Source of the DNA: a phage | Assembly (NCBI GenBank): GCA_021146965.1 | Contig: GCA_021146965.1_4847.1 | DNA: 46,431 nucleotides | Strand: one strand, 5' to 3' | Shown here: positions 1 to 16,526 of the stretch, one piece after another | Position numbering within the stretch: the stretch's first letter is position 1 | Layout: every line of letters begins with the position of its first letter | Notes under the pieces: model-generated | Told to the model about the DNA's origin: nothing | The model's database searches: none | What the model saw: only the letters and a program-made list of their open reading frames with translations | Program-made: the position numbers and the translations under genes

Positions 1-8
1 AAAAAAAA

Positions 9-401
9 ATGGCAGCACCAACACCTGAAGAATTAGTAAGCCAGATGGCATCACGTGGAATGACTATCACCACAACGGATGCGTCTGGTATTCTGTGCCT
101 TGTGGCATCAATCAGTGAATGCCTTGAGCTGAACTACCCCAATGATGAATGCCGGCAAAATGCGATCATGCTGTGGGCTTCCATCCTGATTAGCGCAAAT
201 ACCGCAGGGCGCTACGTCACCAGTCAGAGCGCACCATCTGGCGCATCGCAATCATTCGCTTATGGCAGCAAGCCGTGGGTGGCGCTATACAATCAGATGA
301 AACTACTGGATACAGCAGGATGCACTGGCGATTTAGTGGAAGACCCGGACGGCGGCGGCAAGCCGTGGTTTGCGGTTGTGCGTGGGAGTAAATGCAAATG
401 A
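9..401 (+). CDS. hypothetical structural protein (head-tail joining region)
   Basis: 130-aa ORF at start of a co-directional, tightly overlapping gene string preceding tail genes; no recognisable motif; start may be truncated by window edge. Confidence 0.45.
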   Translation: MAAPTPEELVSQMASRGMTITTTDASGILCLVASISECLELNYPNDECRQNAIMLWASILISANTAGRYVTSQSAPSGASQSFAYGSKPWVALYNQMKLLDTAGCTGDLVEDPDGGGKPWFAVVRGSKCK

Positions 402-739
402 CTTCACTGGCTAACTGGAGCTACACGCAACCATGCACCATCTGGCACAAAAGAGGCACTGACAAGTACGGCAAGCCAACTTTTGACGCGCCAGTGAGCA
501 TCATGTGCGATTATGGCTTTAACGATGATGTATCGACCGATGCGAAAGGCAATGAGATTGTGCAGAAAAATACATTCTGGACAGAATACACTGACGCTAA
601 TGTTGGTGATTACATCATGATTGGCACGGTGACAGAAGCTGACCCGCTGGCGGCTGGCGCAAATCAGATTCTGAATGTGATTAACTATGGCTCAACTTTC
701 AACAGGTCAGAGCCACCTGACTTTGCACTGGTGACATAA
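392..739 (+). CDS. putative head-tail adaptor / head closure protein
   Basis: 115-aa ORF overlapping upstream stop (ATGA coupling); size and position typical of head-tail connector proteins. Confidence 0.45.
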   Translation: MQMTSLANWSYTQPCTIWHKRGTDKYGKPTFDAPVSIMCDYGFNDDVSTDAKGNEIVQKNTFWTEYTDANVGDYIMIGTVTEADPLAAGANQILNVINYGSTFNRSEPPDFALVT

Positions 740-1137
740 TGCCAGCGAAATTAAGAGGCGTCCGACAGGCCGTAGAGAGAACATCGCAGATTGTGGATGA
801 GATAATCGCCACGAAAGCTGTGCGTGCAATTAAGTCAGCGACATACATCATCCGCACCGAATCAGCCACGCTAACGCCAATTGATACATCAACGCTAATT
901 AACAGTCAGTTTGATACCGTGGAAGTTAGCGGAACGCGAATCACTGGCAAGGTTGGCTACTCTGCAAAATATGCACTGTACGTCCACAATGCCAGCGGTA
1001 AACTTGCAGGGAAACCGCGCAGCAACGGCAACGGCACGTATTGGTCGCCGGGTGGTGAACCACAATTCCTGACCAAAGCAGCGCAACGCACAAAAGACCT
1101 TGTTGATAGCGTGATTAAGAAGGAGATGACACTCTAA
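739..1137 (+). CDS. putative HK97 gp10-like tail component
   Basis: 132-aa ORF; position between adaptor and tail genes; sequence style (YALYVHNASG...GTYWSPGGEPQFL) resembles HK97 gp10 family from memory. Confidence 0.45.
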   Translation: MPAKLRGVRQAVERTSQIVDEIIATKAVRAIKSATYIIRTESATLTPIDTSTLINSQFDTVEVSGTRITGKVGYSAKYALYVHNASGKLAGKPRSNGNGTYWSPGGEPQFLTKAAQRTKDLVDSVIKKEMTL

Positions 1138-1511
1138 TGAATATGCTTGAACTGGTTGATGCATATCTTCAGGATGCAGGATTGTACGATGGCTGGACTT
1201 CGCAGCTGCAGTTCTGGAATGACACCGGAGATGGAAGTGAGCAATTTATTGTTCTGCAATCCAACGGTGGCACTCAGGTTATGGATGGCCTCGGCGGTGA
1301 CTTCTATTTTTCGCTGTATGTTGTTGGCAAACAAGGCCAATACAATGTTGCTGATGTTGATTCGAAGGCCAATGAGATTATCGAATACATCAAAACACAC
1401 CCGATTGATTCATGCGTTAACTACATCCAGTTGCAAGCGCCACTTGGCAGGGCAATGCTGACGGAAGAAAAAAGACCAGTGCATGAACTGCTATTGCGTG
1501 TTGTGAAATAA
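1137..1511 (+). CDS. putative tail completion / tail terminator protein
   Basis: 124-aa ORF, start overlaps upstream stop; last gene before terminator and major tail gene. Confidence 0.4.
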   Translation: MNMLELVDAYLQDAGLYDGWTSQLQFWNDTGDGSEQFIVLQSNGGTQVMDGLGGDFYFSLYVVGKQGQYNVADVDSKANEIIEYIKTHPIDSCVNYIQLQAPLGRAMLTEEKRPVHELLLRVVK

Positions 1512-1514
1512 ATA

Positions 1515-1540
1515 AAGCCGCATGAAGCGGCTTTTAATTT
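1515..1540 (+). terminator. rho-independent terminator
   Basis: hairpin AAGCCGC-atga-GCGGCTT followed by T-rich run directly after stop of 1137..1511. Confidence 0.6.
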
Positions 1541-1616
1541 GGTGGACACGGACGAATTTGAACCTTCAATCAGCCGATTATTAGTCGGTTGCTTTAACCA
1601 ATTAAGCTACGCGTCC
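1540..1616 (-). tRNA. tRNA-like gene (77 nt, encoded CCA; anticodon loop CUAAUAA, anticodon reads AAU, identity uncertain)
   Basis: minus-strand sequence GGACGCG-TA-GCTT-AATTGGTTA-AAGC-A-ACCGA-CTAATAA-TCGGC-TGATT-GAAGG-TTCAAAT-TCGTC-CGTGTCC-A-CCA folds as cloverleaf: 7-bp acceptor stem (one G-U), 4-bp D stem with GG in D loop, T8/A9, U33, T-loop TTCAAAT; one mismatch each in anticodon and T stems. Confidence 0.45.
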
Positions 1617-2137
1617 ATAAGTGCTGGTTTAAGCATTGCCAGCGTGCTTTCTTAACATCCAGCCCCGTAACCCATACATACCCCTACATATGATTGCGAT
1701 AATGCTGGATATTAAGTGTTGTGGTGGCCGGTGCTGATCTCCGGCATAAGGCGCTTATTCGGCGGCGTCGAGCTTGCTTATTCGCTTGAGCCATCCTCGT
1801 GAGTCAGCCACGTCCCACTGCGCATCAGCCTGCGCATTCACCACAACGGAAAGAGCACTGATGCGCTCACTTGGGACTCCTTAGCCATAACCCACGGGCT
1901 TCTGGTACACCAATGCTCTTACCTGTTGTGTTCCCTGACTTATTAATCACACCTCAGGGACGCAGTGCGCCGAATTTGTTTACAAGGAATCGGAAGACCT
2001 TGCTGACTTACAGGCTATTACGTCGCCATCAGAACAACATCATCGTTTGCATTTATCTTTGTGGTCAGTTTCTAAAAAGTCCGCAAAGTCGCTCACGAAA
2101 ACTATCTGAAATACAATCTACACCACAAAATAATCGC

Positions 2138-2158
2138 TGTCAACACCTGTGATATAAT
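2138..2158 (+). promoter_or_regulatory. putative sigma70 promoter with extended -10 (TGaTATAAT)
   Basis: TGTCAACAC at 2138-2146, TGA+TATAAT at 2150-2158, 37 nt upstream of major tail gene ATG; same TGTCAACAC...TGaTATAAT arrangement recurs at 3531-3556. Confidence 0.45.
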
Positions 2159-2194
2159 CACCACGTTAGCAGCTAACACAATTCGGAGATCGAA

Positions 2195-2914
2195 ATGGCT
2201 ATTTGTGCAAATGATAAAGGCATTCTGGTCGGTCGCATGACCCGACTGTTCCTTGCTGAAGGGTGCGGCGACGCAGTTCCGGATGCAGGCGACTGGAAGT
2301 ATTTAGGCTCAACCACCAGTAAAGGCGTTGACTACTCGCCGCAGACCACTACGTCGGAAGCGGATACCGCTGGCGGCTTTGTTTCTACTCTCGTTACCAG
2401 CTCTGATATGACCATCAGTGCAGAGGTAGAAATCCGCAAGAATGACCCGAGCGATGAGTTTGGCTTCCATCGTCTTGTTGAGATTTACACCACTGAACTG
2501 AAGGCTCGCCGCCAGCCTTCCTTGTGGGTGCGTCAGGTGACTGGTGCAACTATCGTTACCGCGTATTGCAACATCACCAGCATCAGCTACGAAGGTGGCA
2601 CGAACGATATCGTTACTGGTAGCCTTGAGTTTAAGGTTTACGATTCTGACAGCGTTACCGTAGAAAGCCTTGAACCTCTGGCATTCACTACCTACCTGCA
2701 ATCAACTGGCACGGCCGGAAGCCCGTTAACCGTTGCTGTTGAAGGTGGCGTTGCTCCTTACACTTATGTATGGCGCAAAGATGGCGCAGTTGTTGATGGT
2801 GAGTCTGGCGCATCTCTGGCAAGCCCTACCGCTGGCGTGTATACCGTCACGGTAACTGATTCATCTACCGCCCCGGAAATTATCATCAGCACGGCGTGCA
2901 CGGTATCCCGATAA
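2195..2914 (+). CDS. major tail protein with C-terminal Ig-like (Big_2-type) domain
   Basis: 239-aa ORF with GGAGA RBS; C-terminal ~70 aa (TVAVEGGVAPYTYVWRKDGAVVDGESGASL...YTVTVTD) is a typical Ig-like decoration domain of siphovirus major tail proteins; followed by terminator. Confidence 0.6.
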   Translation: MAICANDKGILVGRMTRLFLAEGCGDAVPDAGDWKYLGSTTSKGVDYSPQTTTSEADTAGGFVSTLVTSSDMTISAEVEIRKNDPSDEFGFHRLVEIYTTELKARRQPSLWVRQVTGATIVTAYCNITSISYEGGTNDIVTGSLEFKVYDSDSVTVESLEPLAFTTYLQSTGTAGSPLTVAVEGGVAPYTYVWRKDGAVVDGESGASLASPTAGVYTVTVTDSSTAPEIIISTACTVSR

Positions 2915-2916
2915 AG

Positions 2917-2945
2917 AAAAGCCCCGAAAGGGGCTTTGTTTTATT
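2917..2945. terminator. rho-independent terminator (likely bidirectional)
   Basis: AAAAGCCCC-gaaa-GGGGCTTT hairpin followed by GTTTTATT; lies between convergent genes 2195..2914(+) and 2941..3141(-). Confidence 0.65.
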
Positions 2946-3141
2946 CTTGTGGTGGTTCTGGCAGATTGGCCCAGTGGGTAGCTGGAATTCCGTGACAGCA
3001 GTCCAATTCACTAACAAATATCTTGCTGCCAATATTATCGACAGCTTTACATGCCGCAGTTCTAACAACACCGCGAAATGCTGTAAGAACCATCGTTCCT
3101 TCTTCTGGCATTCGCTCACTACACTTAATCCACTGGCTCAT
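2941..3141 (-). CDS. DUF551-like protein
   Basis: 66-aa ORF MSQWIKCSERMPEEG...IPATHWANLPEPPQE matches the DUF551 pattern recalled from phage proteins; translationally coupled (ATGA) to upstream ORF. Confidence 0.5.
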   Translation of the reverse strand: MSQWIKCSERMPEEGTMVLTAFRGVVRTAACKAVDNIGSKIFVSELDCCHGIPATHWANLPEPPQE

Positions 3142-3281
3142 ATCACCTTGTCCTCATCAAAAATCACGCCAATAACGCGAAGTAAGTCTTTCGCCATGCG
3201 TTCCGCTTCCTCGTAGTCGTAACCTGCATCAACATACAAATCAGTGTAGAAAATCAGGTCAGCTTTTGTTTGTTCGTTCAT
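3138..3281 (-). CDS. small hypothetical protein (47 aa incl. stop)
   Basis: ORF MNEQTKADLIFYTDLYVDAGYDYEEAERMAKDLLRVIGVIFDEDKVI linking two flanking genes by ATGA overlaps at both ends; below ORF-track size cut-off. Confidence 0.4.
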   Translation of the reverse strand: MNEQTKADLIFYTDLYVDAGYDYEEAERMAKDLLRVIGVIFDEDKVI

Positions 3282-3472
3282 TTCTTGTCGCCACTGTTAA
3301 CTAATGCCCAAACAAGTGCCGCAACCCATCCAATAAAGCTCCACCCGACAAGAATATTCAGTACACAGATTGCTGTCGTGTTTGTGTGCTTGCGTTGCAA
3401 AGCCACAAATGATGGAAGAAGATAAACAAATATAACCAATCCAGCAAAAAGCAACAAAATAACAACATCCAT
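3278..3472 (-). CDS. superinfection-immunity-like small membrane protein
   Basis: 64-aa ORF with two hydrophobic helices; motif YLLPSFVALQRKHTNTTAICVLNILVGWSFIGWVAALVWAL resembles the Imm_superinfect family signature (LP..IA..R.H.N..aI...N...GWt.iGWv.AL.WA) from memory. Confidence 0.5.
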   Translation of the reverse strand: MDVVILLLFAGLVIFVYLLPSFVALQRKHTNTTAICVLNILVGWSFIGWVAALVWALVNSGDKK

Positions 3473-3530
3473 AACTCACCTCATTCATATCTCGTTTCGA
3501 TGATTTGAATCTACATCACCACCTCGCAGG

Positions 3531-3556
3531 TGTCAACACTACTGAGATGATATAAT
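3531..3556 (+). promoter_or_regulatory. putative sigma70 promoter with extended -10 (TGaTATAAT)
   Basis: TGTCAACAC 3531-3539 and TGA+TATAAT 3548-3556, ~30 nt upstream of 3586 ATG. Confidence 0.45.
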
Positions 3557-3585
3557 CAACATCAGTCAAATTCAGGATGCAAAAC

Positions 3586-4323
3586 ATGAGCAATCGCACG
3601 CCACTAACAGAAATCGGGGAGATGCGCATCTCGCTTTCTGACAGGAGTTTTTTCTTTAAGCCATCATTCCGTGCCATGAATGAAATTGGCACGCCAAAAG
3701 AAATCGTCGAGGTATACGCTAAGCTCAATGGCATTGATTATATTGCGCCGTTGCAGCACGTCGAATACCTGCCATTTGGCGCGCAGATGCAGGTTATGAA
3801 GACCATCAGCAAACCTGTGTATGGTCGCCATGTACTGAGCGCAGCCTATATCGTCATGCAATCATGCTGTGAAGATGATATTTCTGTGCTGATTGGTGGA
3901 TGGAAGCCAACACCGCGCGGTGTGCGATACGTGCCGGGAGTAATGCCAATTGGCGGCACTGGACATTTGCCAGGTGGAACAGGTGGAATTATTGAGATTG
4001 CCCGCTCATTAATGGAGCACGGCATTATTGGCAAATCACCACTCAAAGTGCCTGAGCGTCTGGAAGAGCAGGGTAAGAAAACCACAAATGAGTTTCATGC
4101 GTCGCAATACATCATCTCAGCGCGCACGCATTTCGACATGACGCGTGATGAGGCCGAAAACCTGTCCATGACAGAGTTTCAGATGATGATTAAAAATAAA
4201 TATCCAGAGCCGAAAGGGTTAACGAAAGAAGAGCGCGCGGCAGAGTACGATCAGGCTAAAGCAGACCGTGAGCGCATGAAGGCACTGGCTGAACGCAAAG
4301 CGAAAAAAGCGAGGAATACATAA
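3586..4323 (+). CDS. putative tail assembly chaperone
   Basis: ORF immediately upstream of tape measure gene (1-nt overlap TAATG); start moved from 3577 to ATG 3586 for AGGA spacing; basic C-terminus; function assigned mainly by position. Confidence 0.45.
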   Translation: MSNRTPLTEIGEMRISLSDRSFFFKPSFRAMNEIGTPKEIVEVYAKLNGIDYIAPLQHVEYLPFGAQMQVMKTISKPVYGRHVLSAAYIVMQSCCEDDISVLIGGWKPTPRGVRYVPGVMPIGGTGHLPGGTGGIIEIARSLMEHGIIGKSPLKVPERLEEQGKKTTNEFHASQYIISARTHFDMTRDEAENLSMTEFQMMIKNKYPEPKGLTKEERAAEYDQAKADRERMKALAERKAKKARNT

Positions 4324-6697
4324 TGGCTGAAGAAGTCGGCGGAATTGTCTATGAAGTCGGGATGGATGTTAAAGGCCTGAAGGCTGGCGCGACAACAGCC
4401 AATAAGACTTTAGGTGACCTTGAATCATCAACCAACAAAACCACAAGCGCCCTTGGCAAGCTGGATAAAAACGCCAGAAATGCTGGCAGCGGAATGAAAA
4501 ATGCTGGCGGCGCAGCTTCAGGGCTAAAAACGCAGATGACGGCTCTTGCTGGCGCAATATCCGTGTCACTGATTATCGAATGGGGAAAGCGATTCCTTGA
4601 TGTTGCCGATAACATGACACAACTTCAGGCAAGGATTGCTCGCTTGTCAACTGATGCGAAAACCGCGAACGAAACATTCAGTACACTGGCAAATATCGCC
4701 TCGACCACTGGCGCAAGTCTCAGCGACACCACGAAGCTGTGGGAAACATTGACGTCATCACTGAAAGAGGCTGGCGCGACAAATGCGCAGGTTCTTAACC
4801 TTACTGACACTCTGCAAAAGATAGGACGAATCGGCGGGTCATCAACAGAAGAAATGGCGAACGCCCTGCGTCAGTTCGGTCAGTCAATTGCTTCTGGCAC
4901 AATCCGCGCCGAAGAATTTAACTCCATCCTTGAACAGATGCCTGAACTTGCGCGCCAGATTGCAGCTGGACTTGGCATTTCAATGGGCGAACTTCGCGCC
5001 AGAATGCTTGACGGAAAGCTGACGGCAGAAGATGCACTGAATGCCATTCAGGACAGGACAAGCATCGTCAATGCTGAGTTTGAAAAACTTCCTCGCACAA
5101 TGGATCAGGCCGTTGGTTCTCTTGAAGTTTCATTCTCCAAACTTGTGGTTGCCGTTAACGATGCCACTGGCGCATCAAAAACAGCAGTAGAGATTATCGA
5201 CCAGCTGGCAAAATACATTGATTTCCTCGGCGACAAATCAACCAGCACGAGCGACAAGATTCTATCTCTCGCCACGGTTATCTCGAAGCTAAACCCAGGC
5301 GCATGGGCACAAATGGGGGTTGATGCGCTTTTCGGTGATGATGATATTGAGAAGCAAAAACAATATAACGATCAAGTCGAGCGATTCGTTAAGGCTTCAA
5401 AAGAAGGTTACGAGCAGACAAAGAAACAGGCTGAAGCAACAAAACACCTGAAGATTGCACAAGCACCAACCAAAGACAAGAAAGGCAAAGGAAAGGGCAA
5501 AAGCGCCGAAGAACGGCAAGCTGAGTCAGTTGCTGAAAAGCTGGAGAAATTACGCCAGCAAACCATGCTTAATGCCACATCTACCAGCGAACTCTCCCGC
5601 GATCAAGCCATCCTCAACGCGCAGCAATCGCTTGGCAAGGCTGCCACTCAGGAACAAATAAAACTGGCTGGCGAGTACGCTGCGAAGATTTGGGACCAGA
5701 GAAACGCGCTGAAGGAGCAGGCAGCAGCTGAGAAAGAAAAGCAGCGCGTAGAAAAATCATATCAGGGGTTGCGCGCCATTGCGTCACCAACATCTGGCAT
5801 TGATAGTGAATACCAGCAACGCATGGCTGACCTTGACGCCTACGCCGCAGCATATCCACAAAAAATCACGGAGATTGAGCAGACTCGCGCAGCAATTGAG
5901 GCACAGTACCGCCAGCAGAGAATGGACGCCATGTGGGCTGAATGGCAGCAGCAAAGCCTCGGGGCGCAATTGTTCGGCACGGCGCTTGATTCAGCGATGA
6001 GTACAGCATCAAACAGCATCACTGGATTGCTCACAGGCACAATGAGCGTTCAGGATGCAATGCGCAGCCTCGGCTCTACGGTGCTGAATTCTCTGGTAAA
6101 CAGCTTTGTTGAAATGGGCGTTCAGTGGGTTAAATCCGCCGTTATGGGGCAGACTGCGCAGGTTGCGGCAACAGCTACCACCACAGCGGCGCAAACGGCA
6201 GGACTCGCAACCACAACAGCAGCATCAACTGCAGCGGCAGCAACCACTACCGCAGCATGGACTCCAGCGGCAATCGTAGCATCAATCGGTTCATTCGGCG
6301 GGGCGGCTGCAATTGGTGTAGGTGCTGTTCTCGGGGCACTGGCAATGGGTATCGCTGGCAAGCGAAAAAATGGCGGCTCAGTTAGCGCCGGAAGTATGTA
6401 CGAAGTGGGCGAAAATGGCTTGCCTGAAATATTCCAGGCGTCCAACGGTCGCCAGTATATGATTCCCGGCAACGATGGCTCAGTTATCAGCAACAAAGAC
6501 ATTACCGGAAGTGGCAGTGGCGTTGTGGTTTATAATAACGTGATAAATAACAGCTCTGCTCAGGTTAGCAGCAGTGCCAGAGATAATGGTGATGGCAGTG
6601 TGACGATTGAGACTATCGTTAGTGATATCGAAAACAACGGCCCTATCGGGCAAAGCATTGGAAGAAACTACTCAGCAAGCCGGAGGGCAACTGAATA

Positions 6698-6698
<1 letters not shown>
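4323..6698 (+). CDS. tail tape measure protein
   Basis: 791-aa protein, long coiled-coil-like central region, Ala/Thr-rich hydrophobic segment (AQTAGLATTTAASTAAAATTTAAWTPAAIVASIGSFGGAAAIGVGAVLGALAMGIAG) typical of TMPs; largest tail gene. Confidence 0.8.
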
Positions 6699-10502
<3,804 letters not shown>

Positions 10503-10541
10503 TACAATATACATCAAATTCACAAAGGAGCATTTATTATA

Positions 10542-12809
10542 ATGGCTACCACACCAACCAATAAACCAATTCCGTCAGAAGACCCGCGCGACCTGAAGTT
10601 TAATGCTGGTAAAATTGACGAAGTTGTCAACTCTGACAATCACTACTACACCGATCGCTTTGGTCATCGCCGCTTTACAATTGCAGGATTCCAACACACC
10701 GCAGAAGAAGCAATTCGTAACTATGGCTACATCACAATGGATAGCTTCGAGGATGGCGCGACGCTGACGTTACCGAATCAGGTTTTGCGCTATGAAGCTA
10801 CTGGAGAATATTACCGCTGGGATGGTGAATTCCCTAAAACAGTCGCTTCTGGTTCAGCTCCTGCATCCGCTGGCGGTGTTGGAATTGGGAAATGGTTGAG
10901 TGTTGGTGATGCAGCCCTGCGCAGCCAGATTTCAGACCCGGATGGTGCGTCCAGTTACCCTGAATTGCAGATGGCAAGATGGCGTGATGAGGGTGATGTT
11001 CGAGGCTGGGGTGCTAAAGGGGATGGTGTAACGGATAGTACGGAGAATATAGCTGCTTCACTAAATTCTCAAAAAGCTGTCGTAGCATCAGACGGTGTAT
11101 TCTCTAGTTCTGGTATTAATAGTAATTACTGTAACTTAGACGGTAGAGGCAGTGGTGTACTAAGTCACCGTTCAAGTACAGGTAACTACTTAGTATTTAA
11201 CAATCTACGCTCAGGTCGCTTAAGTAATATTACGGTAGAAAGTAATAAGGCGACCGATACCACTCAAGGGAAGCAGGTATCTCTTGCTGGTGGTAGTGAT
11301 GTTACTATAAGTGATGTTAATTTCTCAAACGTTAAGGGCATTGGTTTCAGTTTAATCACATACCCTAATAATGCACCCTCTGATGGGCTTATGATTAAAG
11401 GCATTCGAGGTAGCTACTCCGGCTATGCTACTAATAAGGCGGCTGGATGCATACTTGCTGATTCCTCGGTTAACTCCCTCATAAATAACGTCATTGCTAA
11501 GAACTACCCTCAGTTCGGGGCTGTAGAACTGAAAGGTACAGCCAGTTATAACATAGTCAGCAATGTTATAGGGGCAGACTGCCAGCATGTAACTTACAAC
11601 GGTACAGAAGGGTCAATAGCTCCCTCTAACAACCTTATCAATGGGGTAGTGGCTAATAATCCTAAATATGCAGCGGTTGTTGCAGGCAAAGGTAGTGCCA
11701 ACTTAATCTCAGATGTGCTTGTAGATTTCTCAATCTCTGATGCTAGGCAGGCTCACGGTGTTACAGTAGAAGGTTCTGATAACGTCATAAATAATGTGCT
11801 TATGTCAGGATGTGATGGTAATAACTCTTTAGGGCAAGCTCAGACTGCTACAATTGCGCGCTTTATAGGTACAGCTAATAACAACTATGCGTCTGTATTT
11901 CCTAGCTACAGTGCTACAGGTGTTATTACTTTCGAATCAGGTTCTACCCGTAACTTCGTAGAGGTAAAGCATCCGGGAAGGAGAAACGACCTTCTCAGTA
12001 CTGCTAGTGCTATTAGCGGTGCAGATACTATTGACGGCACTAATAATAGCAACGTAGTGCACGCCCCTGCATTAGGGCAGTACATAGGCAGTATGTCCGG
12101 TAGGTTCGAATGGCGGATTAAGTCCATGTCACTTCCGTCAGGCGTTCTTACCTCGGCTGATAAGTACAGAATGCTTGGGGATGGTGCTGTGTCATTAGCT
12201 GTAGGAGGGGGTACTTCTTCTCAAGTTCGCCTATTTACTTCTAATGGTACTTATCGGACAGTATCACTCACCAACGGTAACGTGCGTCTTCCTACCAGTA
12301 GCACAGGTTATTTGCAGTTAGGTTCTGATGCAATGACCCCAGATAGTACTAATACATACGCATTAGGTTCCGCAAGTAGAGCATGGTCTGGCGGTTTTAC
12401 TCAATCAGCATTCACTGTTGTCTCAGATGCTAGGGATAAAACAGAGCCTCTTAATATCTCAGATGCTTTACTGGATGCTTGGTCTGAAGTTGACTTTGTG
12501 CAGTTTCAGTACTTGGACCGAATTGAGGAGAAGGGTGCAGACTCAGCTAGATGGCACTTCGGCATCATCGCTCAGCGAGCTAAGGAGGCATTCGAACGTC
12601 ACGGTATAGATGCACATCGCTATGGCTTCCTGTGCTTCGACAGTTGGGATGATGTATACGAGGAAGATGCCAATGGCTCTCGTAAACTGATTACACCAGC
12701 AGGTTCCCGCTACGGTATTCGTTACGAGGAAGTACTGATATTAGAGGCTGCGTTGATGCGGCGTACTATTAAGCGTATGCAGGAAGCATTAGCTGTTATG
12801 TCTAAGTGA
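10542..12809 (+). CDS. tailspike protein with pectate-lyase-like beta-helix and C-terminal intramolecular chaperone (peptidase S74-type) domain
   Basis: 755 aa; GWGAKGDGVTD motif typical of right-handed beta-helix depolymerases; C-terminal ~130 aa (SDARDKTEPL...WHFGIIAQRAKEAF...YGIRYEEVLILEAALMRR) matches the auto-cleaving chaperone domain of endosialidase/T5 L-shaped fibre type. Confidence 0.8.
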   Translation: MATTPTNKPIPSEDPRDLKFNAGKIDEVVNSDNHYYTDRFGHRRFTIAGFQHTAEEAIRNYGYITMDSFEDGATLTLPNQVLRYEATGEYYRWDGEFPKTVASGSAPASAGGVGIGKWLSVGDAALRSQISDPDGASSYPELQMARWRDEGDVRGWGAKGDGVTDSTENIAASLNSQKAVVASDGVFSSSGINSNYCNLDGRGSGVLSHRSSTGNYLVFNNLRSGRLSNITVESNKATDTTQGKQVSLAGGSDVTISDVNFSNVKGIGFSLITYPNNAPSDGLMIKGIRGSYSGYATNKAAGCILADSSVNSLINNVIAKNYPQFGAVELKGTASYNIVSNVIGADCQHVTYNGTEGSIAPSNNLINGVVANNPKYAAVVAGKGSANLISDVLVDFSISDARQAHGVTVEGSDNVINNVLMSGCDGNNSLGQAQTATIARFIGTANNNYASVFPSYSATGVITFESGSTRNFVEVKHPGRRNDLLSTASAISGADTIDGTNNSNVVHAPALGQYIGSMSGRFEWRIKSMSLPSGVLTSADKYRMLGDGAVSLAVGGGTSSQVRLFTSNGTYRTVSLTNGNVRLPTSSTGYLQLGSDAMTPDSTNTYALGSASRAWSGGFTQSAFTVVSDARDKTEPLNISDALLDAWSEVDFVQFQYLDRIEEKGADSARWHFGIIAQRAKEAFERHGIDAHRYGFLCFDSWDDVYEEDANGSRKLITPAGSRYGIRYEEVLILEAALMRRTIKRMQEALAVMSK

Positions 12810-12887
12810 GTAATACTAGTACGGTTAGATCAGTAGAGTTGGTTAACAGTAGCCTACGTACTACCAGGCTATTATTTATCAAGGTAT

Positions 12888-12915
12888 AAAACCCCGCCCA
12901 GGCGGGGTTTGTTTT
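12888..12915. terminator. bidirectional rho-independent terminator
   Basis: AAAACCCCGCC-cag-GCGGGGTTTGTTTT hairpin between convergent tailspike (+) and ssb (-). Confidence 0.65.
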
Positions 12916-12919
12916 ATCA

Positions 12920-13426
12920 TCAGAACGGAATGTCGTCGTCGAAGTCAATCGGCGGCTCATTGCCTCCTTGTGGGCTTTGTTGTTTTTGTGGCTGTTGTTG
13001 TTGCGGATTTGTCCCCCATCCACCTTGAGGTTGCTGTCCTGATTGCTGGCGTGGTTGTTGCTGATCAGAATCATCACGTCTACCACCAAGCATCTGCATA
13101 ACACCACCCATCTGCGGAATGACAATCTCAGTGGTGTATTTGTCCACGCCGTTGCTGTCAGTCCACTTACGAGTGCGTAGCTGGCCTTCGATATAAACCT
13201 GAGAACCTTTGCGAAGGTATTCGCCTGCAATCTCAGCAAGTTTCCCGAAGATGACCACGCGATGCCACTCGGTCTGTTCTTTCTTTTCTCCTGTCTGCTT
13301 ATCTTTCCACTGCTCAGATGTTGCAACAGAAAGGTTGGCAATTGAAGAGCCTGATGCTGAATATTTAACTTCAGGATCGTTTCCGAGGGTACCGACAATA
13401 ATTACTTTATTTACGCCGCGTGCCAT
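12920..13426 (-). CDS. ssb: single-stranded DNA-binding protein
   Basis: 168 aa; OB-fold N-terminus ([20 protein letters not shown]...WHRVV.FGKLAE), Gln/Pro/Gly-rich linker and acidic C-terminal tail DFDDDIPF. Confidence 0.9.
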
Positions 13427-13429
13427 TTA

Positions 13430-14470
13430 TTAAAATCCTTCAATTGGAGTTGGTTTATGTTCGGTTTTTGTTTCTTCCTGCTGTTCTGGCTGATGATGTT
13501 GCGGTTTAGCCAGTTTTGCAGGGTTGAAATTATCCTGTGGAGTTATTACCACAGGAGGTAATTGCTCATCATTGATAAAAGACTCAATGCGATCATATTC
13601 AGCAGCAGAAGCAGCGAGAGAAGGCCATATTGCACGAATCTTATCTTTCAGGTTATCAGGTATTGATTTCGCCTCTTCCTTCAGTCCTTCCATTCCTTTT
13701 GCTGCTGAAAGCTGAAGTCGTGAGCGCCATGATTCAAACTCTTCGTCAACTTTAACACCAGAGTCCACCCATTTGATGAGTCCTCGACCATGAGCCTCTC
13801 CAATATAGCCATGACGAACGCTTTCACGACCAGACTCAAAGAAGATGGGGCGTAGCTCTTCTGGTAATTTGGTGAACTCCTGAATTTTTCCTCCATCGTG
13901 CATCATCATGCTCACGGTCATCTCGAACATGAAATCTTTCTCGCACACTGGCTGTAACCCAAGTGATACAGGTTCCTTCGGGTTTGCGAAGTCAGTTTTC
14001 TGGCGAGCGCGAAGACAGACAATGATATGCATATTGCTTTGTAGCATGGCATTCATGAACTTCTTGTGTTCAGCTTTGGCGCGCTTCCAGTCAGCCATCT
14101 TTTTACCGTTAAGCAGCGGCTTTTCAGCAATCTCCGTGCAACTGCCTTCACCTTCCCATTCATGCGAACCTGAATCAATAACAAGAACCTTAACGCCGGC
14201 AGCCTGAAACTCTTCAATGGCCTGACGGTAACGGGCCGGGCTGAATGGAGCATACATATCAGCGTGCAGGAATTTGCCATCAAGGATGTTTGAGTACAGG
14301 CGACCGCGACCATTTTCAGTATCAAGGAATCCGATTTCTTCTGGTGAGTCAACCATCCCGCGAGCCAGCTTAAGTGCGCTGTATGTTTTTCCGCTACCAG
14401 ACTGGCCTGAAATACCGATGACTACACGAGAACCTGAACGCTCTGCTGGTTTAATATTGAGAATACCCAT
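13430..14470 (-). CDS. Sak4-like RecA-fold ATPase (ssDNA annealing/recombination)
   Basis: Walker A GISGQSGSGKTYSA near N-terminus, ~340 aa, adjacent to ssb; start placed at ATG 14470 (GAGGTG 6 nt upstream) rather than GTG 14479. Confidence 0.7.
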   Translation of the reverse strand: MGILNIKPAERSGSRVVIGISGQSGSGKTYSALKLARGMVDSPEEIGFLDTENGRGRLYSNILDGKFLHADMYAPFSPARYRQAIEEFQAAGVKVLVIDSGSHEWEGEGSCTEIAEKPLLNGKKMADWKRAKAEHKKFMNAMLQSNMHIIVCLRARQKTDFANPKEPVSLGLQPVCEKDFMFEMTVSMMMHDGGKIQEFTKLPEELRPIFFESGRESVRHGYIGEAHGRGLIKWVDSGVKVDEEFESWRSRLQLSAAKGMEGLKEEAKSIPDNLKDKIRAIWPSLAASAAEYDRIESFINDEQLPPVVITPQDNFNPAKLAKPQHHQPEQQEETKTEHKPTPIEGF

Positions 14471-14487
14471 TTTCATCACCTCACTAA

Positions 14488-15426
14488 TTATAAATTAAAC
14501 TGTTTTTTGAACCATTCAGGCGTTTCCATTTCTATGACAGGATTACCCATTGAATAACCGGGCCACGAATTGGCTTTTTTGCACGCCTTGTAAATTTCCA
14601 TAGCGCCATGCAACTGAATTCGACCGATGCGTAATTGCTCTTCAGTCAAGCGAATTAACGCAGGAATAAATGGTGCTTTCTTTTCCTGAACGAGAAGATT
14701 AACAGAGCGTGGCGCATGACCATATGCCGCAACAAACATGTCGTGCTGCATCGCCATTTTCATAAAGTACCCAAGTCTCGCAGCATGACGGAAAAACTCT
14801 TCTGGCTTGGCGCTCACCGCTGTTTTGTAGTCGATTATGTCGCCACCTTTGGTAAGGCAGTCAAAGCGAACTTTTGCCTTCTCTCCGTTAAGTTCACCTA
14901 GAATTGACACTTCAGCATAAGCACCAGCGAGAAGACTGCTGTAATAGCTGTTTGCGTGGATTACAGCACGCATTTGCTGAATAGCGTCATAATCACCACC
15001 TTCCAGCATTTGCTTTCCTACAGCAGCTTTTTCAGCCTCTTCACGGATGACATCGTAAATTTTCACTGGCTCGCCAGTCGCCTGGATGATTTTGATCACC
15101 TCAGCTTTCGACTTTCCTGAAAGTCCTTTGATGCCTCGTTCTTTTGCCCATGAGTTCATATCACTTACAGTAACAAGCAGGTCATCACCAAAATCTTCTT
15201 TGGTTGGCATTCGTGCATATTCAGCATCAAAACGCTCTGGTTCAAGCAACGCAGTATGGCTACCTGTACCGAATATAAGAGCTTTTGATTGCTCATCCTC
15301 TTCGTCTTTGTATCGCCATGCTGCCGGGCATCTGTCAAGTATATTCCATAATCCAGAACCATTAATGTGCTCTGTGTCAGCATGATAATCCTGATTGCTT
15401 AATTCATTGTTGAAATAAACTCTCAT
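14488..15426 (-). CDS. PD-(D/E)XK family exonuclease (RecB/Cas4-like)
   Basis: ~310 aa with D...D-x-K-type nuclease signature (GGDIIDYKTAVSAKPEEF) and position in recombination module; start ATG 15426/15429. Confidence 0.6.
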   Translation of the reverse strand: MRVYFNNELSNQDYHADTEHINGSGLWNILDRCPAAWRYKDEEDEQSKALIFGTGSHTALLEPERFDAEYARMPTKEDFGDDLLVTVSDMNSWAKERGIKGLSGKSKAEVIKIIQATGEPVKIYDVIREEAEKAAVGKQMLEGGDYDAIQQMRAVIHANSYYSSLLAGAYAEVSILGELNGEKAKVRFDCLTKGGDIIDYKTAVSAKPEEFFRHAARLGYFMKMAMQHDMFVAAYGHAPRSVNLLVQEKKAPFIPALIRLTEEQLRIGRIQLHGAMEIYKACKKANSWPGYSMGNPVIEMETPEWFKKQFNL

Positions 15427-15428
15427 CA

Positions 15429-16055
15429 TCACTCTCCGTGGTTACAGAATTCTTTATGCATCTTTTCTCTGAATTTCATCACAGACAACCTCGCTCTCTC
15501 AATATCATTGAATAACCCAAGATGGTATCTTTTCCCGTTAACATCACAGTAAGCATGCCACTTTTTAACCTGTTTTTGCCAATACACACCTTTAACTCCT
15601 GATGTGTTATTTTTTGGTTTTTTAGCGTTATACTGGTTCTGCATATTTGTTGCGATTCTTAAGTTGCAAATCCTGTTATCGTCACGCACACCGTTAATGT
15701 GATCAATTTGACCTTCAGGCCAGAAACCATAATAAATCAACCATACCAAGCGATGCGCGTAGTATCTTTTATTATTTATGCTTATCTCTATGTATCCGTT
15801 ATGTTTTTTCCTGCCAGCGACACTACCCTTTCTTACACCTCCACCCGTCTTATTTCTAATGAAAACCCCTGTTTCATGGTTGTAATTTAAGCTATCCAAA
15901 ACAACATAACGTGGTATTCTTTTTCTTCTTCCTATGGTGTTTGACTCTGCACTTCCCTGAGCAAAATCTTGCTTTTGCAGTTCCGATAAACTCATTTCCA
16001 CAAACCTCGCACTTCTTAACGGTGATAGCCATTTCTTACCCTCTATTGTAATCAT
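15429..16055 (-). CDS. HNH homing endonuclease with AP2 DNA-binding domain (paralog 1 of 4)
   Basis: IDHINGVRDDNRICNLR HNH motif plus AP2-like SGVKGVYWQKQVKKWHAYCDVNGKRYHLGLF; paralogous to 25547..26059, 34748..35260, 36012..36542. Confidence 0.8.
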   Translation of the reverse strand: MITIEGKKWLSPLRSARFVEMSLSELQKQDFAQGSAESNTIGRRKRIPRYVVLDSLNYNHETGVFIRNKTGGGVRKGSVAGRKKHNGYIEISINNKRYYAHRLVWLIYYGFWPEGQIDHINGVRDDNRICNLRIATNMQNQYNAKKPKNNTSGVKGVYWQKQVKKWHAYCDVNGKRYHLGLFNDIERARLSVMKFREKMHKEFCNHGE

Positions 16056-16100
16056 TTTCCGTTACATTGCAAGTAACTTTTATTTGTTACTAACGATACA

Positions 16101-16526
16101 TTAATCTACGTCATCCAGCAAGCCAAAATAGAAAAGCGTGGCTTTTTTTAATTCATCAAGCCCATAAGCTATGGCAGCATAATGACCAAGCCTGCACATC
16201 TCTGTTAGCACTGCTGATTGATCCTTGCTCACCCTGCTTTTGCTTTTATCGCGGCGCTTTGCTTCAATCATCCCACAACTGTGATTTACCCCCGGAGTCA
16301 TTATCACATTGTCGCCTATACCAGCCTTAACCCCCATCTTCTGGCGCTTCAGCACAAACTGCACCCTGCTTGATGTGCCAGTTTCGTTGGGTACATGAAA
16401 CCACAGAACATCAGGGAAGCGGTGTTGCATCCATGTTCCATAACCCATCTGGTCAGTCTCCTCTTTTGGGCATTCTCCTCGATAACCGCTATCAAATACC
16501 CATATACCGCTATCAAGCTGCTTCAC
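16101..16526 (-). CDS. VRR-NUC domain nuclease
   Basis: 141 aa; GMIEAKRRDK...SKDQSAVLTEMCRLGHYAAIAYGLDEL fits VRR-NUC (D..EAK then Q..w...G) pattern; adjacent to SF2 helicase as commonly seen; GTG start with AAGGA RBS. Confidence 0.6.
   Translation of the reverse strand: MKQLDSGIWVFDSGYRGECPKEETDQMGYGTWMQHRFPDVLWFHVPNETGTSSRVQFVLKRQKMGVKAGIGDNVIMTPGVNHSCGMIEAKRRDKSKSRVSKDQSAVLTEMCRLGHYAAIAYGLDELKKATLFYFGLLDDVD

Follow-up and report, generated by a model that had tools for sequence, protein, structure and literature searches.

The locus analysed here raises the question of whether a phage tailspike gene has been assembled from parts with separate histories and, if so, where these parts were joined, what the exchanged part does and from which kind of genome it came. 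The gene lies in a phage contig of 46,431 nucleotides (GCA_021146965.1_4847.1), which in its entirety is referred to below as the window. The original prediction described a mosaic tailspike, in which a conserved N-terminal anchor is joined to an exchanged enzymatic domain and a C-terminal auto-chaperone; homology, DNA junctions and the Peptidase_S74 match support this reading, and all three elements hold. Its gene span, 10542-12809, agrees exactly with the open reading frame list (plus strand, 755 aa). Considered as a whole, the prediction was confirmed in part, since the chaperone and the codon shift held up, but the strength of its claim on bulk composition did not. The product is very probably a trimeric tailspike by which a lytic siphovirus of the Sf11/HC6 type depolymerises the capsule of its target, E. 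coli with the K5 (heparosan) capsule. The features of the locus are the following:

6698-7171, plus strand: distal tail protein, 157 aa, predicted docking partner of the anchor (homology to Sf11 gp17)
10525-10530, plus strand: Shine-Dalgarno-like AAGGAG, 11 nt 5' of the ATG at 10542 (read from the letters)
10542-12809, plus strand: tailspike gene, 755 aa, 80.6-kDa precursor (open reading frame list)
10542-10721, plus strand: siphovirus-specific helical anchor, aa 1-60 (homology to Sf11 gp13)
10722-10913, plus strand: Tail_spike_N domain (PF18668), aa 61-124, with a conserved W(L/V)SVGD motif at its end (Pfam match)
10914-11027, plus strand: neck/linker ALRSQISDPDGASSYPELQMARWRDEGDVRGWGAKGDG, aa 125-162 (identity profile; analogy to the Sf11 hinge)
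11028-12425, plus strand: K5 (heparosan) lyase beta-helix and C-terminal intertwined stalk, aa 163-628 (PDB 2x3h match)
11526-11534, plus strand: codons Glu329-Leu330-Lys331 (VELKG), candidate catalytic pair (aligned to Glu206 and Lys208 of KflA / K1-5 gp46)
12423-12440, plus strand: predicted autoproteolytic site, Ser628-Lys633 (VVS/DARDK), cut after Ser628 (structure-chain alignments)
12426-12806, plus strand: intramolecular chaperone (Peptidase_S74), aa 629-755, 127 aa, 14.7 kDa, predicted to be released (Pfam and PDB matches)
12810-12888, plus strand: 3' untranslated stretch that moves with the cassette, common to UE-S5b and contig L006 and absent from HC6
12889-12910, no strand assigned: GC-rich hairpin terminator between the convergent spike and SSB genes, right-hand joint (terminator scan)

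The N-terminal part of the spike is specific to its lineage, and the anchor was correctly predicted to be conserved: residues 1-134 are 80% identical to Sf11 gp13 (PDB 9occ_G, E 3e-69, aligned to residues 1-135), and the HC6 spike shares 88% identity over aa 1-60 and 80% over aa 61-124. Residues 4-59 of Sf11 gp13 bundle as helices with the adaptor helix of gp17, with Arg16 and Lys19 as contacts (PMC12724387), and the counterparts of both are kept in the tailspike anchor. The distal tail protein (6698-7168) is 94% identical to residues 1-155 of Sf11 gp17; of the four acidic contact residues in its adaptor helix, which were taken from PMC12724387, E129, E136 and E147 are conserved, and position 152 has D instead of E. 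By analogy with Sf11, the anchor helices are predicted to bundle with this adaptor helix. Next to the anchor, Pfam recognises the Tail_spike_N domain (aa 63-123) with an E value of 2.5e-16 and a score of 59.9 bits, the cutoff being 25; the K5 lyase spikes of Gamaleyavirus and Kayfunavirus have a diverged version of it (47-55% identity). Identity over the linker is 100% with UE-S5b, 89% with IME177 and 16% with K1-5 gp46. The stretch ARWRDEGDVRGWGAKGDG terminates at aa 162, that is at nt 11027, and in gp13 of Sf11 a hinge has been placed near residue 162 (PMC12724387); by this analogy, the linker is likely to be a hinge between anchor and enzyme.

The central part aligns over aa 155-628 to crystallised KflA (PDB 2x3h, E 1.2e-277), and the full spike of PDB 9vvr aligns to aa 61-755. 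Within aa 163-628, identity reaches 92% to K1-5 gp46 and 96% to UE-S5b. By these alignments, the enzyme belongs specifically to the KflA type of K5/heparosan lyase, and it may cleave -4)GlcA-beta(1,4)-GlcNAc-alpha(1- by beta-elimination. The probable fold of aa 163-628 is a trimeric right-handed parallel beta-helix with an intertwined triple-stranded element; this assignment rests on the match to the solved KflA structure and on PMC8822698, where KflA is described as a trimeric lyase with a beta-helical body and a triple-stranded element behind it. In the proposed search for a pectate lyase-like beta-helix, no pectate-lyase or beta-helix Pfam family (e.g. PF12708, PF13229) matched the central domain at E values up to 1, the only families matched in the tailspike at this threshold being Tail_spike_N and Peptidase_S74, but the solved homologue is a trimeric beta-helix (PMC8822698), and the resemblance to pectate lyases is limited to the level of fold and mechanism. 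As a separate observation, one database record names a cluster member of identical length 'Pectate lyase superfamily protein'.

At the C-terminus, Peptidase_S74 (PF13884) matches aa 628-688 (E 4e-14, 53 bits against a cutoff of 22) and chaperone domains from the PDB cover aa 628-750 (3gud, E 1.7e-23; 3gw6, 5e-21; 4uw8, 6e-10). The claim that the last ~130 residues form an intramolecular chaperone is borne out by these matches, the predicted piece being 127 aa long. The chaperone is 100% identical to those of UE-S5b and IME177 and 95% identical to that of K1-5 gp46. At the predicted cleavage site, the mature KflA chain (2x3h) has as its last residue the one aligned to Ser628, the phi29 gp12 chaperone chain (3gud) has the aligned Ser as its first residue, and the endoNF chain (3gw6) carries Ala at the Ser628 position and Lys at the Lys633 position; this Ala presumably represents the non-cleaving S911A mutant. 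The conserved pair, Ser628 with a Lys five residues downstream, is present in the tailspike, and autoproteolytic release of aa 629-755 is predicted. Alignment mapping found all key residues of the protein in place, namely R16, K19, E329, K331, S628 and K633.

Two alternatives concern the function of these domains. Thompson et al. are said to have identified, in 2010, Glu206 and Lys208 of KflA as catalytic residues, and Glu329 and Lys331, the candidate pair of the tailspike, align to them. The spike might nevertheless bind the capsule without catalytic activity, or act on a substrate other than K5, through the 36 substitutions (of 466 lyase positions) that separate it from K1-5 gp46; these include a cluster at aa 487-501, and DNA identity dips to 83-87% around 11980-12040 in every comparison. 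However, none of the aligned K5 lyase alleles departs from E329, K331 or the VELKGTASYNIVSNVIG block around them, and an identity of 92-96% lies in the range covered by alleles that have been annotated, and used, as K5 lyases, which makes an inactive or shifted enzyme very unlikely in our judgement. The other alternative, that the C-terminal domain stays in the virion as a distal receptor-binding knob instead of acting as a cleaved chaperone, draws on PDB 9vvr, which lists the full 843-aa sequence including the domain, although such a listing gives the sequence and not the modelled extent. Conservation of Ser628 and Lys633 and the end of mature KflA at the aligned Ser argue against retention, as does the reported maturation of K1-5 ORF46, a trimeric heparosan lyase, in which its mass falls from 67 to 52 kDa (PMC5380687); we consider a retained knob hardly probable and favour an active K5 lyase with a cleaved chaperone.

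DNA comparisons locate the joints between the parts. Gamaleyavirus UE-S5b shares 97.5% identity over 10888-12915, Kayfunavirus IME177 shares 93% over 10802-12825, rising to 98% from ~10985, and Vectrevirus K1-5 shares 92% over 11031-12813. The flanks of the spike, in turn, follow the HC6 backbone: HC6/6947 is 94.8% identical over 1-10541 and 100% over ~13600-16400, and the centre of its spike is unrelated. This pattern bears out the proposed horizontal replacement of the enzymatic domain. At the level of nucleotide sequence, horizontal exchange of the lyase and chaperone is directly demonstrated by the 92-97.5% identity to the spikes of three other phage families together with the sharp junctions. 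Homology of the HC6 type stops at 10912 and restarts at 12889, identity to UE-S5b starts at 10888-10916, and identity to contig L006 passes from ~70% to 100% at ~10722, which marks a module joint. The left joints are nested, at about 10722, 10890-10916, 10985 and 11031; the boundary predicted at 10985-11030 falls within this range, but it is one of several joints between 10722 and 11031 and not a single point. The right joint lies within the shared terminator (12889-12910), which has a 9-bp stem, 6 of its pairs being GC, and then a T-run. The stem, AAACCCCGC...GCGGGGTT, is common to the window, UE-S5b, HC6 and L006, and the homology to UE-S5b ends at 12915, just past it. The lyase, chaperone, 3' untranslated region and terminator form a portable cassette exchanged among four phage lineages, with crossovers at domain boundaries within the N-terminal 166 codons and in the shared terminator.

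Base composition had been said to change abruptly around 10985-11030, with ~1.4 kb downstream much more AT-rich. GC content is 0.504 in aa 1-162, 0.436 in aa 163-628 (1398 nt) and 0.475 in aa 629-755, and the best single GC change-point within the gene, at 11027-11046, agrees with the predicted location but is weak and not significant (2*LLR 5.8, matched by 114 of 500 within-gene codon shuffles). The 1.4-kb lyase stands at the 13th percentile of GC among same-size stretches of the window, the most AT-rich part of which (~15250-16250, GC 0.377) lies outside the spike gene. The terms 'abruptly' and 'much more AT-rich' therefore overstate the bulk signal. The change in codon usage, on the other hand, stands. 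In an analytical test that controlled for amino-acid content and took its reference codon usage from the window's tail genes, lyase GC3 was 0.341 against 0.496 expected (z = -6.8, or -5.7 against all reference genes), below every 466-codon window of the reference genes (minimum 0.358). Neither aa 1-162 (GC3 0.426, z = -1.8) nor the chaperone (0.441, z = -1.3) is significantly deviant, and anchor against lyase GC3 is borderline by a two-proportion estimate (z ~1.9). The composition signal is a synonymous-codon signal without a striking change in bulk GC; the chaperone moves together with the lyase, yet it is not AT-rich.

These values bear on two further alternatives, on the cause of the shift and on the direction of transfer. 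The shift could be a by-product of the amino acids of a beta-helix (Ser, Asn, Thr, Gly), carrying no signal of horizontal origin. The lyase part contains 14% Ser, 10% Asn and 8% Thr, and its amino acids alone (rich in Ser, Asn, Gly and Thr) lower the expected GC from 0.530, the value for aa 1-162, to 0.494, about half of the bulk drop; the non-significant GC change-point is also in favour of this account. However, the GC3 deviation persists with amino acids held fixed, and the high DNA identity to the spikes of other families, with its sharp junctions, stands against it as well. Amino-acid make-up as the sole cause is refuted by the codon test and the DNA junctions, and an origin of the shift without any horizontal signal is extremely improbable. 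As for direction, GC3 in the flanks of the spike gene is 0.372 in K1-5, 0.386 in UE-S5b and 0.529 in IME177, and 0.500 in the tail genes of HC6. Import of the lyase from a podovirus-type genome is what these values point to, since its GC3 of 0.34 fits Vectrevirus and Gamaleyavirus (0.37-0.39) and not the siphovirus backbone (~0.50). GC3 is also lowish in the spikes of HC6 (0.405) and Sf11 (0.386); low GC3 is therefore partly a general trait of spike genes in this siphovirus group and does not prove a single donor. The latest event could also have run in reverse, with the siphovirus donating the cassette (linker aa 117-162, lyase, chaperone, 3' untranslated region and terminator) to the N4-like Gamaleyavirus lineage of UE-S5b. 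This would agree with the sharing of 10888-12915 by UE-S5b, together with the 3' untranslated region and a terminator that has its stem in common with HC6, a siphovirus without the lyase, and with a linker (aa 125-162) that is fully identical to that of UE-S5b and adjoins a Tail_spike_N domain common in the siphovirus group. Set against it are the lyase GC3, which matches Gamaleyavirus and Vectrevirus flanks and not siphovirus tail genes, and the GC3 of 0.340 in the N-terminal part of UE-S5b's own spike; we regard this reversal as possible but rather unlikely. Both directions can hold at different depths: an origin in podoviruses long ago, and shuttling more recently.

The comparison with known systems separates the parts in the same way. 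KflA and K1-5 gp46 (coliphages K5A and K1-5) share the catalytic beta-helix, the C-terminal stalk and the S74 chaperone, and the equivalents of E206/K208 and the cleavage serine are conserved in the tailspike. The N-terminus of K1-5 gp46 is only a short peptide of ~40 aa that binds a separate podovirus adaptor protein (PMC5380687), whereas the lyase in the window carries a 162-aa siphovirus anchor with Tail_spike_N and linker. The spikes of UE-S5b (Gamaleyavirus, Schitoviridae) and the 843-aa spikes of Kayfunavirus (IME177; PDB 9vvr) have the same lyase, chaperone and neck and also a Tail_spike_N domain, but their particle-binding N-termini are lineage-specific (5-20% identity to aa 1-60), that of Kayfunavirus being of the T7 gp17 type (PF03906). 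Conversely, Sf11 gp13 (Cedarrivervirus; PDB 9occ) and the spikes of HC6/6947, Skate, swi2, IME207 and related siphoviruses resemble the spike of the window in anchor and Tail_spike_N (80-88%); in Sf11/HC6-type siphoviruses the spike gene likewise lies directly 3' of an 829-aa hub gene, and the partner helix of the distal tail protein is conserved. In the receptor-destroying body, the spikes of the closest backbone relatives have no relationship to that of the window (22% and 20% identity across aa 163-628), Sf11 gp13 lacks an S74 chaperone, and the Sf11 distal tail protein has a 300-aa appendage absent from the 157-aa protein of the window. K1F endoNF (PDB 3gw6), phi29 gp12 and T5 pb1 share the S74 chaperone, the Ser-Lys site and an upstream triple-beta-helix stalk; the catalytic domains and substrates of the endoNF-type endosialidase tailspikes, phi29 gp12 and T5 pb1 differ from those of the spike described here.

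For assembly, docking geometry, enzymatic activity and host, we infer the following course. The S74 chaperone would assist trimerisation of the precursor, and cleavage by Ser628 and Lys633 after Ser628 would free the 14.7-kDa fragment and leave a mature spike of 65.9 kDa. The N-terminal helices (aa ~4-59) of each trimer would form a bundle with the distal tail protein's adaptor helix, placing six spike trimers around the tail tip as in Sf11, with the enzymatic body swinging on the hinge near aa 162. The beta-helix (aa 163 to ~560) would then bind heparosan and cut it by beta-elimination through the candidate pair, opening a tunnel along which the virion would cross the capsule and reach the outer membrane.

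The identical 755-aa chimera is present in public assemblies, with the exact protein on a 46461-bp Logan contig; in the August 2025 collection, no phage record from GenBank spans the gene in full. The complete chimera was found only in assemblies, on two different siphovirus backbones, and a literature search for a K5-lyase siphovirus gave nothing relevant. In our view there is an even balance for and against this being the first described siphovirus lineage with a K5 heparosan lyase, borne as six trimers on the distal tail protein ring, with a cassette that shuttles among Schitoviridae, two Autographiviridae subfamilies and siphoviruses through the W(L/V)SVGD end of Tail_spike_N and the shared terminator hairpin as recombination hooks. 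The feature itself is ordinary, opens no new biological question and has modest practical value. It illustrates cleanly how receptor-binding proteins of four phage lineages recombine at nested domain boundaries, and it places a long-tailed phage beside the short-tailed ones known to carry K5 lyase. The phage is predicted to be specific for K5-capsulated E. coli, including UPEC lineages and the probiotic Nissle 1917, and the 3' joint, lying as it does in a shared terminator, could be of help in designing swapped spikes.

With respect to expression, the promoter scan gave no convincing promoter within or just before the spike gene, the two sites found lying on the opposite strand and below the shuffled expectation; the spike is probably transcribed as the final gene of the tail operon. 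Matches in the Rfam scan were to tRNA only.

The spike gene is a single long open reading frame of 755 aa at 10542-12809 on the + strand, exactly where the original prediction had placed it, and it is the final gene of a rightward tail operon comprising the tape measure, distal tail, 156-aa hub and 829-aa hub genes. The features of this region are as follows:

4323-6698 (+), tape measure gene
6698-7171 (+), distal tail protein, 157 aa
Same operon (+), hub protein, 156 aa
8013-10502 (+), hub or central tail protein, 829 aa
11 nt before the spike ATG (+), Shine-Dalgarno-like AAGGAG
12889-12910, between the spike and SSB genes, GC-rich hairpin terminator
12920-13426, leftward and convergent with the spike gene, SSB gene

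Within the spike protein, Pfam searches located Tail_spike_N at aa 63-123 (59.9 bits; cutoff 25) and, bearing out the anticipated C-terminal chaperone domain, Peptidase_S74 at aa 628-688 (53 bits; cutoff 22), with no further Pfam family even at E values up to 1. Residues 1-135 align with gp13 of the siphovirus Sf11 (9occ_G, E 3e-69), residues 61-755 with the 843-aa tail spike 9vvr, and residues 155-628, along their whole length, with the crystal structure of the K5 lyase KflA (2x3h, E 1.2e-277), while at the C-terminus the matches are to chaperone domains, those of phi29 gp12 (3gud), endosialidase NF (3gw6) and T5 pb1 (4uw8). These alignments identify the enzymatic domain as the familiar lyase that acts on heparosan, the K5 capsule of E. 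coli.

The proposal that this spike is a mosaic, with a conserved anchor joined to an exchanged enzymatic domain, is supported and can be refined, as pairwise DNA comparison reveals nested joints on the left side of the cassette.

Left side of the spike cassette, by compared genome
L006 (metagenomic siphovirus contig, different backbone): 100% identity from ~10722 (aa 60, where the anchor helices stop)
Gamaleyavirus UE-S5b: identity climbs from 68% to 100% across 10890-10916 (aa 117-125, the W(L/V)SVGD motif closing Tail_spike_N)
Kayfunavirus IME177: 98% reached at ~10985 (aa ~148)
Vectrevirus K1-5: match begins at 11031 (aa ~164)
HC6-type backbone: ~80% identity stops at 10912

On the right side, UE-S5b homology spans the stop codon, the 80-nt 3' UTR and the terminator and stops at 12915, and HC6 homology restarts at 12889. 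The terminator stem (AAACCCCGC...GCGGGGTT) at 12889-12910 is common to the window, the N4-like podovirus UE-S5b, the lyase-free siphovirus HC6 and contig L006, lying downstream of the spike in each of the latter three, which places the right-hand crossover in the terminator. Protein identities follow the same division: UE-S5b shares 5% with the anchor (aa 1-60), 100% with the linker (aa 125-162), 96% with the lyase (aa 163-628) and 100% with the chaperone (aa 629-755), the corresponding values for HC6 being 88%, 32%, 22% and 46%. No GenBank phage record spans the entire spike gene, the best covering 85-89%.

Bulk GC is 0.504 for aa 1-162, 0.436 for aa 163-628 and 0.475 for aa 629-755. The abrupt shift to AT-rich sequence originally described proved correct in place and direction, the best single change-point lying at 11027-11046, but was overstated as a bulk signal: the gain is small (2*LLR 5.8, matched by 114 of 500 codon shuffles), the 1.4-kb AT-rich part reaches only the 13th percentile of window GC, and amino-acid content (rich in Ser, Asn, Thr and Gly) accounts for about half of the drop. 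The codon-level signal is nevertheless real. In a synonymous-site test with amino acids fixed and the codon usage of the window's tail genes as reference, lyase GC3 was 0.341 against an expected 0.496 (z = -6.8), below every 466-codon window of the reference genes (minimum 0.358) and deviant in each half of the domain (z = -5.7 and -3.8); neither the anchor (z = -1.8) nor the chaperone (z = -1.3) was deviant in this test.

GC3 of the lyase domain and of comparison genes
Lyase domain, window: 0.341
K1-5 flanking genes: 0.372
UE-S5b flanking genes: 0.386
HC6 tail genes: 0.500
Kayfunavirus IME177 flanking genes: 0.529
HC6 spike: 0.405
Sf11 spike: 0.386

The lyase value fits the K1-5 and UE-S5b flanks but neither the Kayfunavirus flanks nor the tail genes of the siphovirus. 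Because the related HC6 and Sf11 spikes are also lowish, low GC3 is in part characteristic of such exchangeable genes in general.

The lyase retains E329 and K331, which correspond to the proposed catalytic residues E206 and K208 (K1-5/KflA numbering), and would use this candidate pair. S628 and K633 occupy the Ser-Lys site of S74, and the mature chain of KflA terminates at the aligned Ser; the predicted maturation is from 80.6 kDa to 65.9 + 14.7 kDa. For K1-5 ORF46, a 67-kDa protein giving a 52-kDa mature form has been reported (PMC5380687), and KflA is described as a trimer in which a triple-stranded element follows the beta-helical lyase (PMC8822698). A substitution hot spot (TASAISGADTIDGTN) was observed at ~11980-12045 (aa 487-501), where DNA identity falls to 83-87% in most allele comparisons, with neighbours at 95-100%; this stretch may form a surface loop that is under pressure to diversify.

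The gp13 spike of Sf11 attaches to the distal tail protein gp17 through its residues 4-59, three chains of which form a bundle with a single gp17 adaptor helix; the gp17 hexamer bears six gp13 trimers, and a hinge lies near residue 162 (PMC12724387). The distal tail protein encoded in the window shares 94% identity with residues 1-155 of gp17 and keeps E129, E136 and E147, with D replacing E152, and the spike anchor keeps R16 and K19; by analogy, the anchor probably docks as in Sf11. Unlike gp17, which carries a ~300-aa C-terminal appendage of unknown function, the 157-aa protein has no appendage.

An identical spike protein is already public on a 46461-bp Logan contig. Its cluster has 72 members, among them other 755-aa proteins with NCBI accessions, under the labels 'tail fiber domain-containing protein [Escherichia coli]' and 'MAG: Pectate lyase superfamily protein [Bacteriophage sp.]'. 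A 97.3% identical locus, L005, has the same backbone, and in L006 and L007 a spike of 756 aa occurs on a different siphovirus backbone. A literature search found no published description of a K5-lyase siphovirus.

Judged from its sequence, the window backbone is that of an Sf11/HC6-like siphovirus of the 46-48 kb class, with 94.8% identity to Escherichia phages HC6 and 6947 over 1-10541 and 100% over ~13600-16400. Mosaicism also extends to the genome scale, the recombination/replication genes (~13600-16400) being 100% identical to HC6 and the tail genes (1-10500) only ~90-95%; the SSB gene is ~85% identical, including one patch at 66%. A tRNA-Ile gene with the unusual anticodon AAT lies within the tail-gene block on the opposite strand (1540-1616, -; ARAGORN; Rfam 56 bits) and is also annotated in HC6. 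AT content in the window peaks at ~15250-16250 (GC 0.377-0.381), a stretch holding a gene at 15429-16055 (-) that may be a homing endonuclease insertion, since its HC6 counterpart is annotated 'HNH endonuclease motif protein'. Finally, the 829-aa hub gene contains a hypervariable patch at ~9000-9400, where identity to HC6, Sf11, L005 and L006 drops to 64-87% (64-81% with HC6 excepted) compared with ~90-100% on both sides, and which may be a second region of receptor contact, likewise exchangeable, at the tip of the tail.
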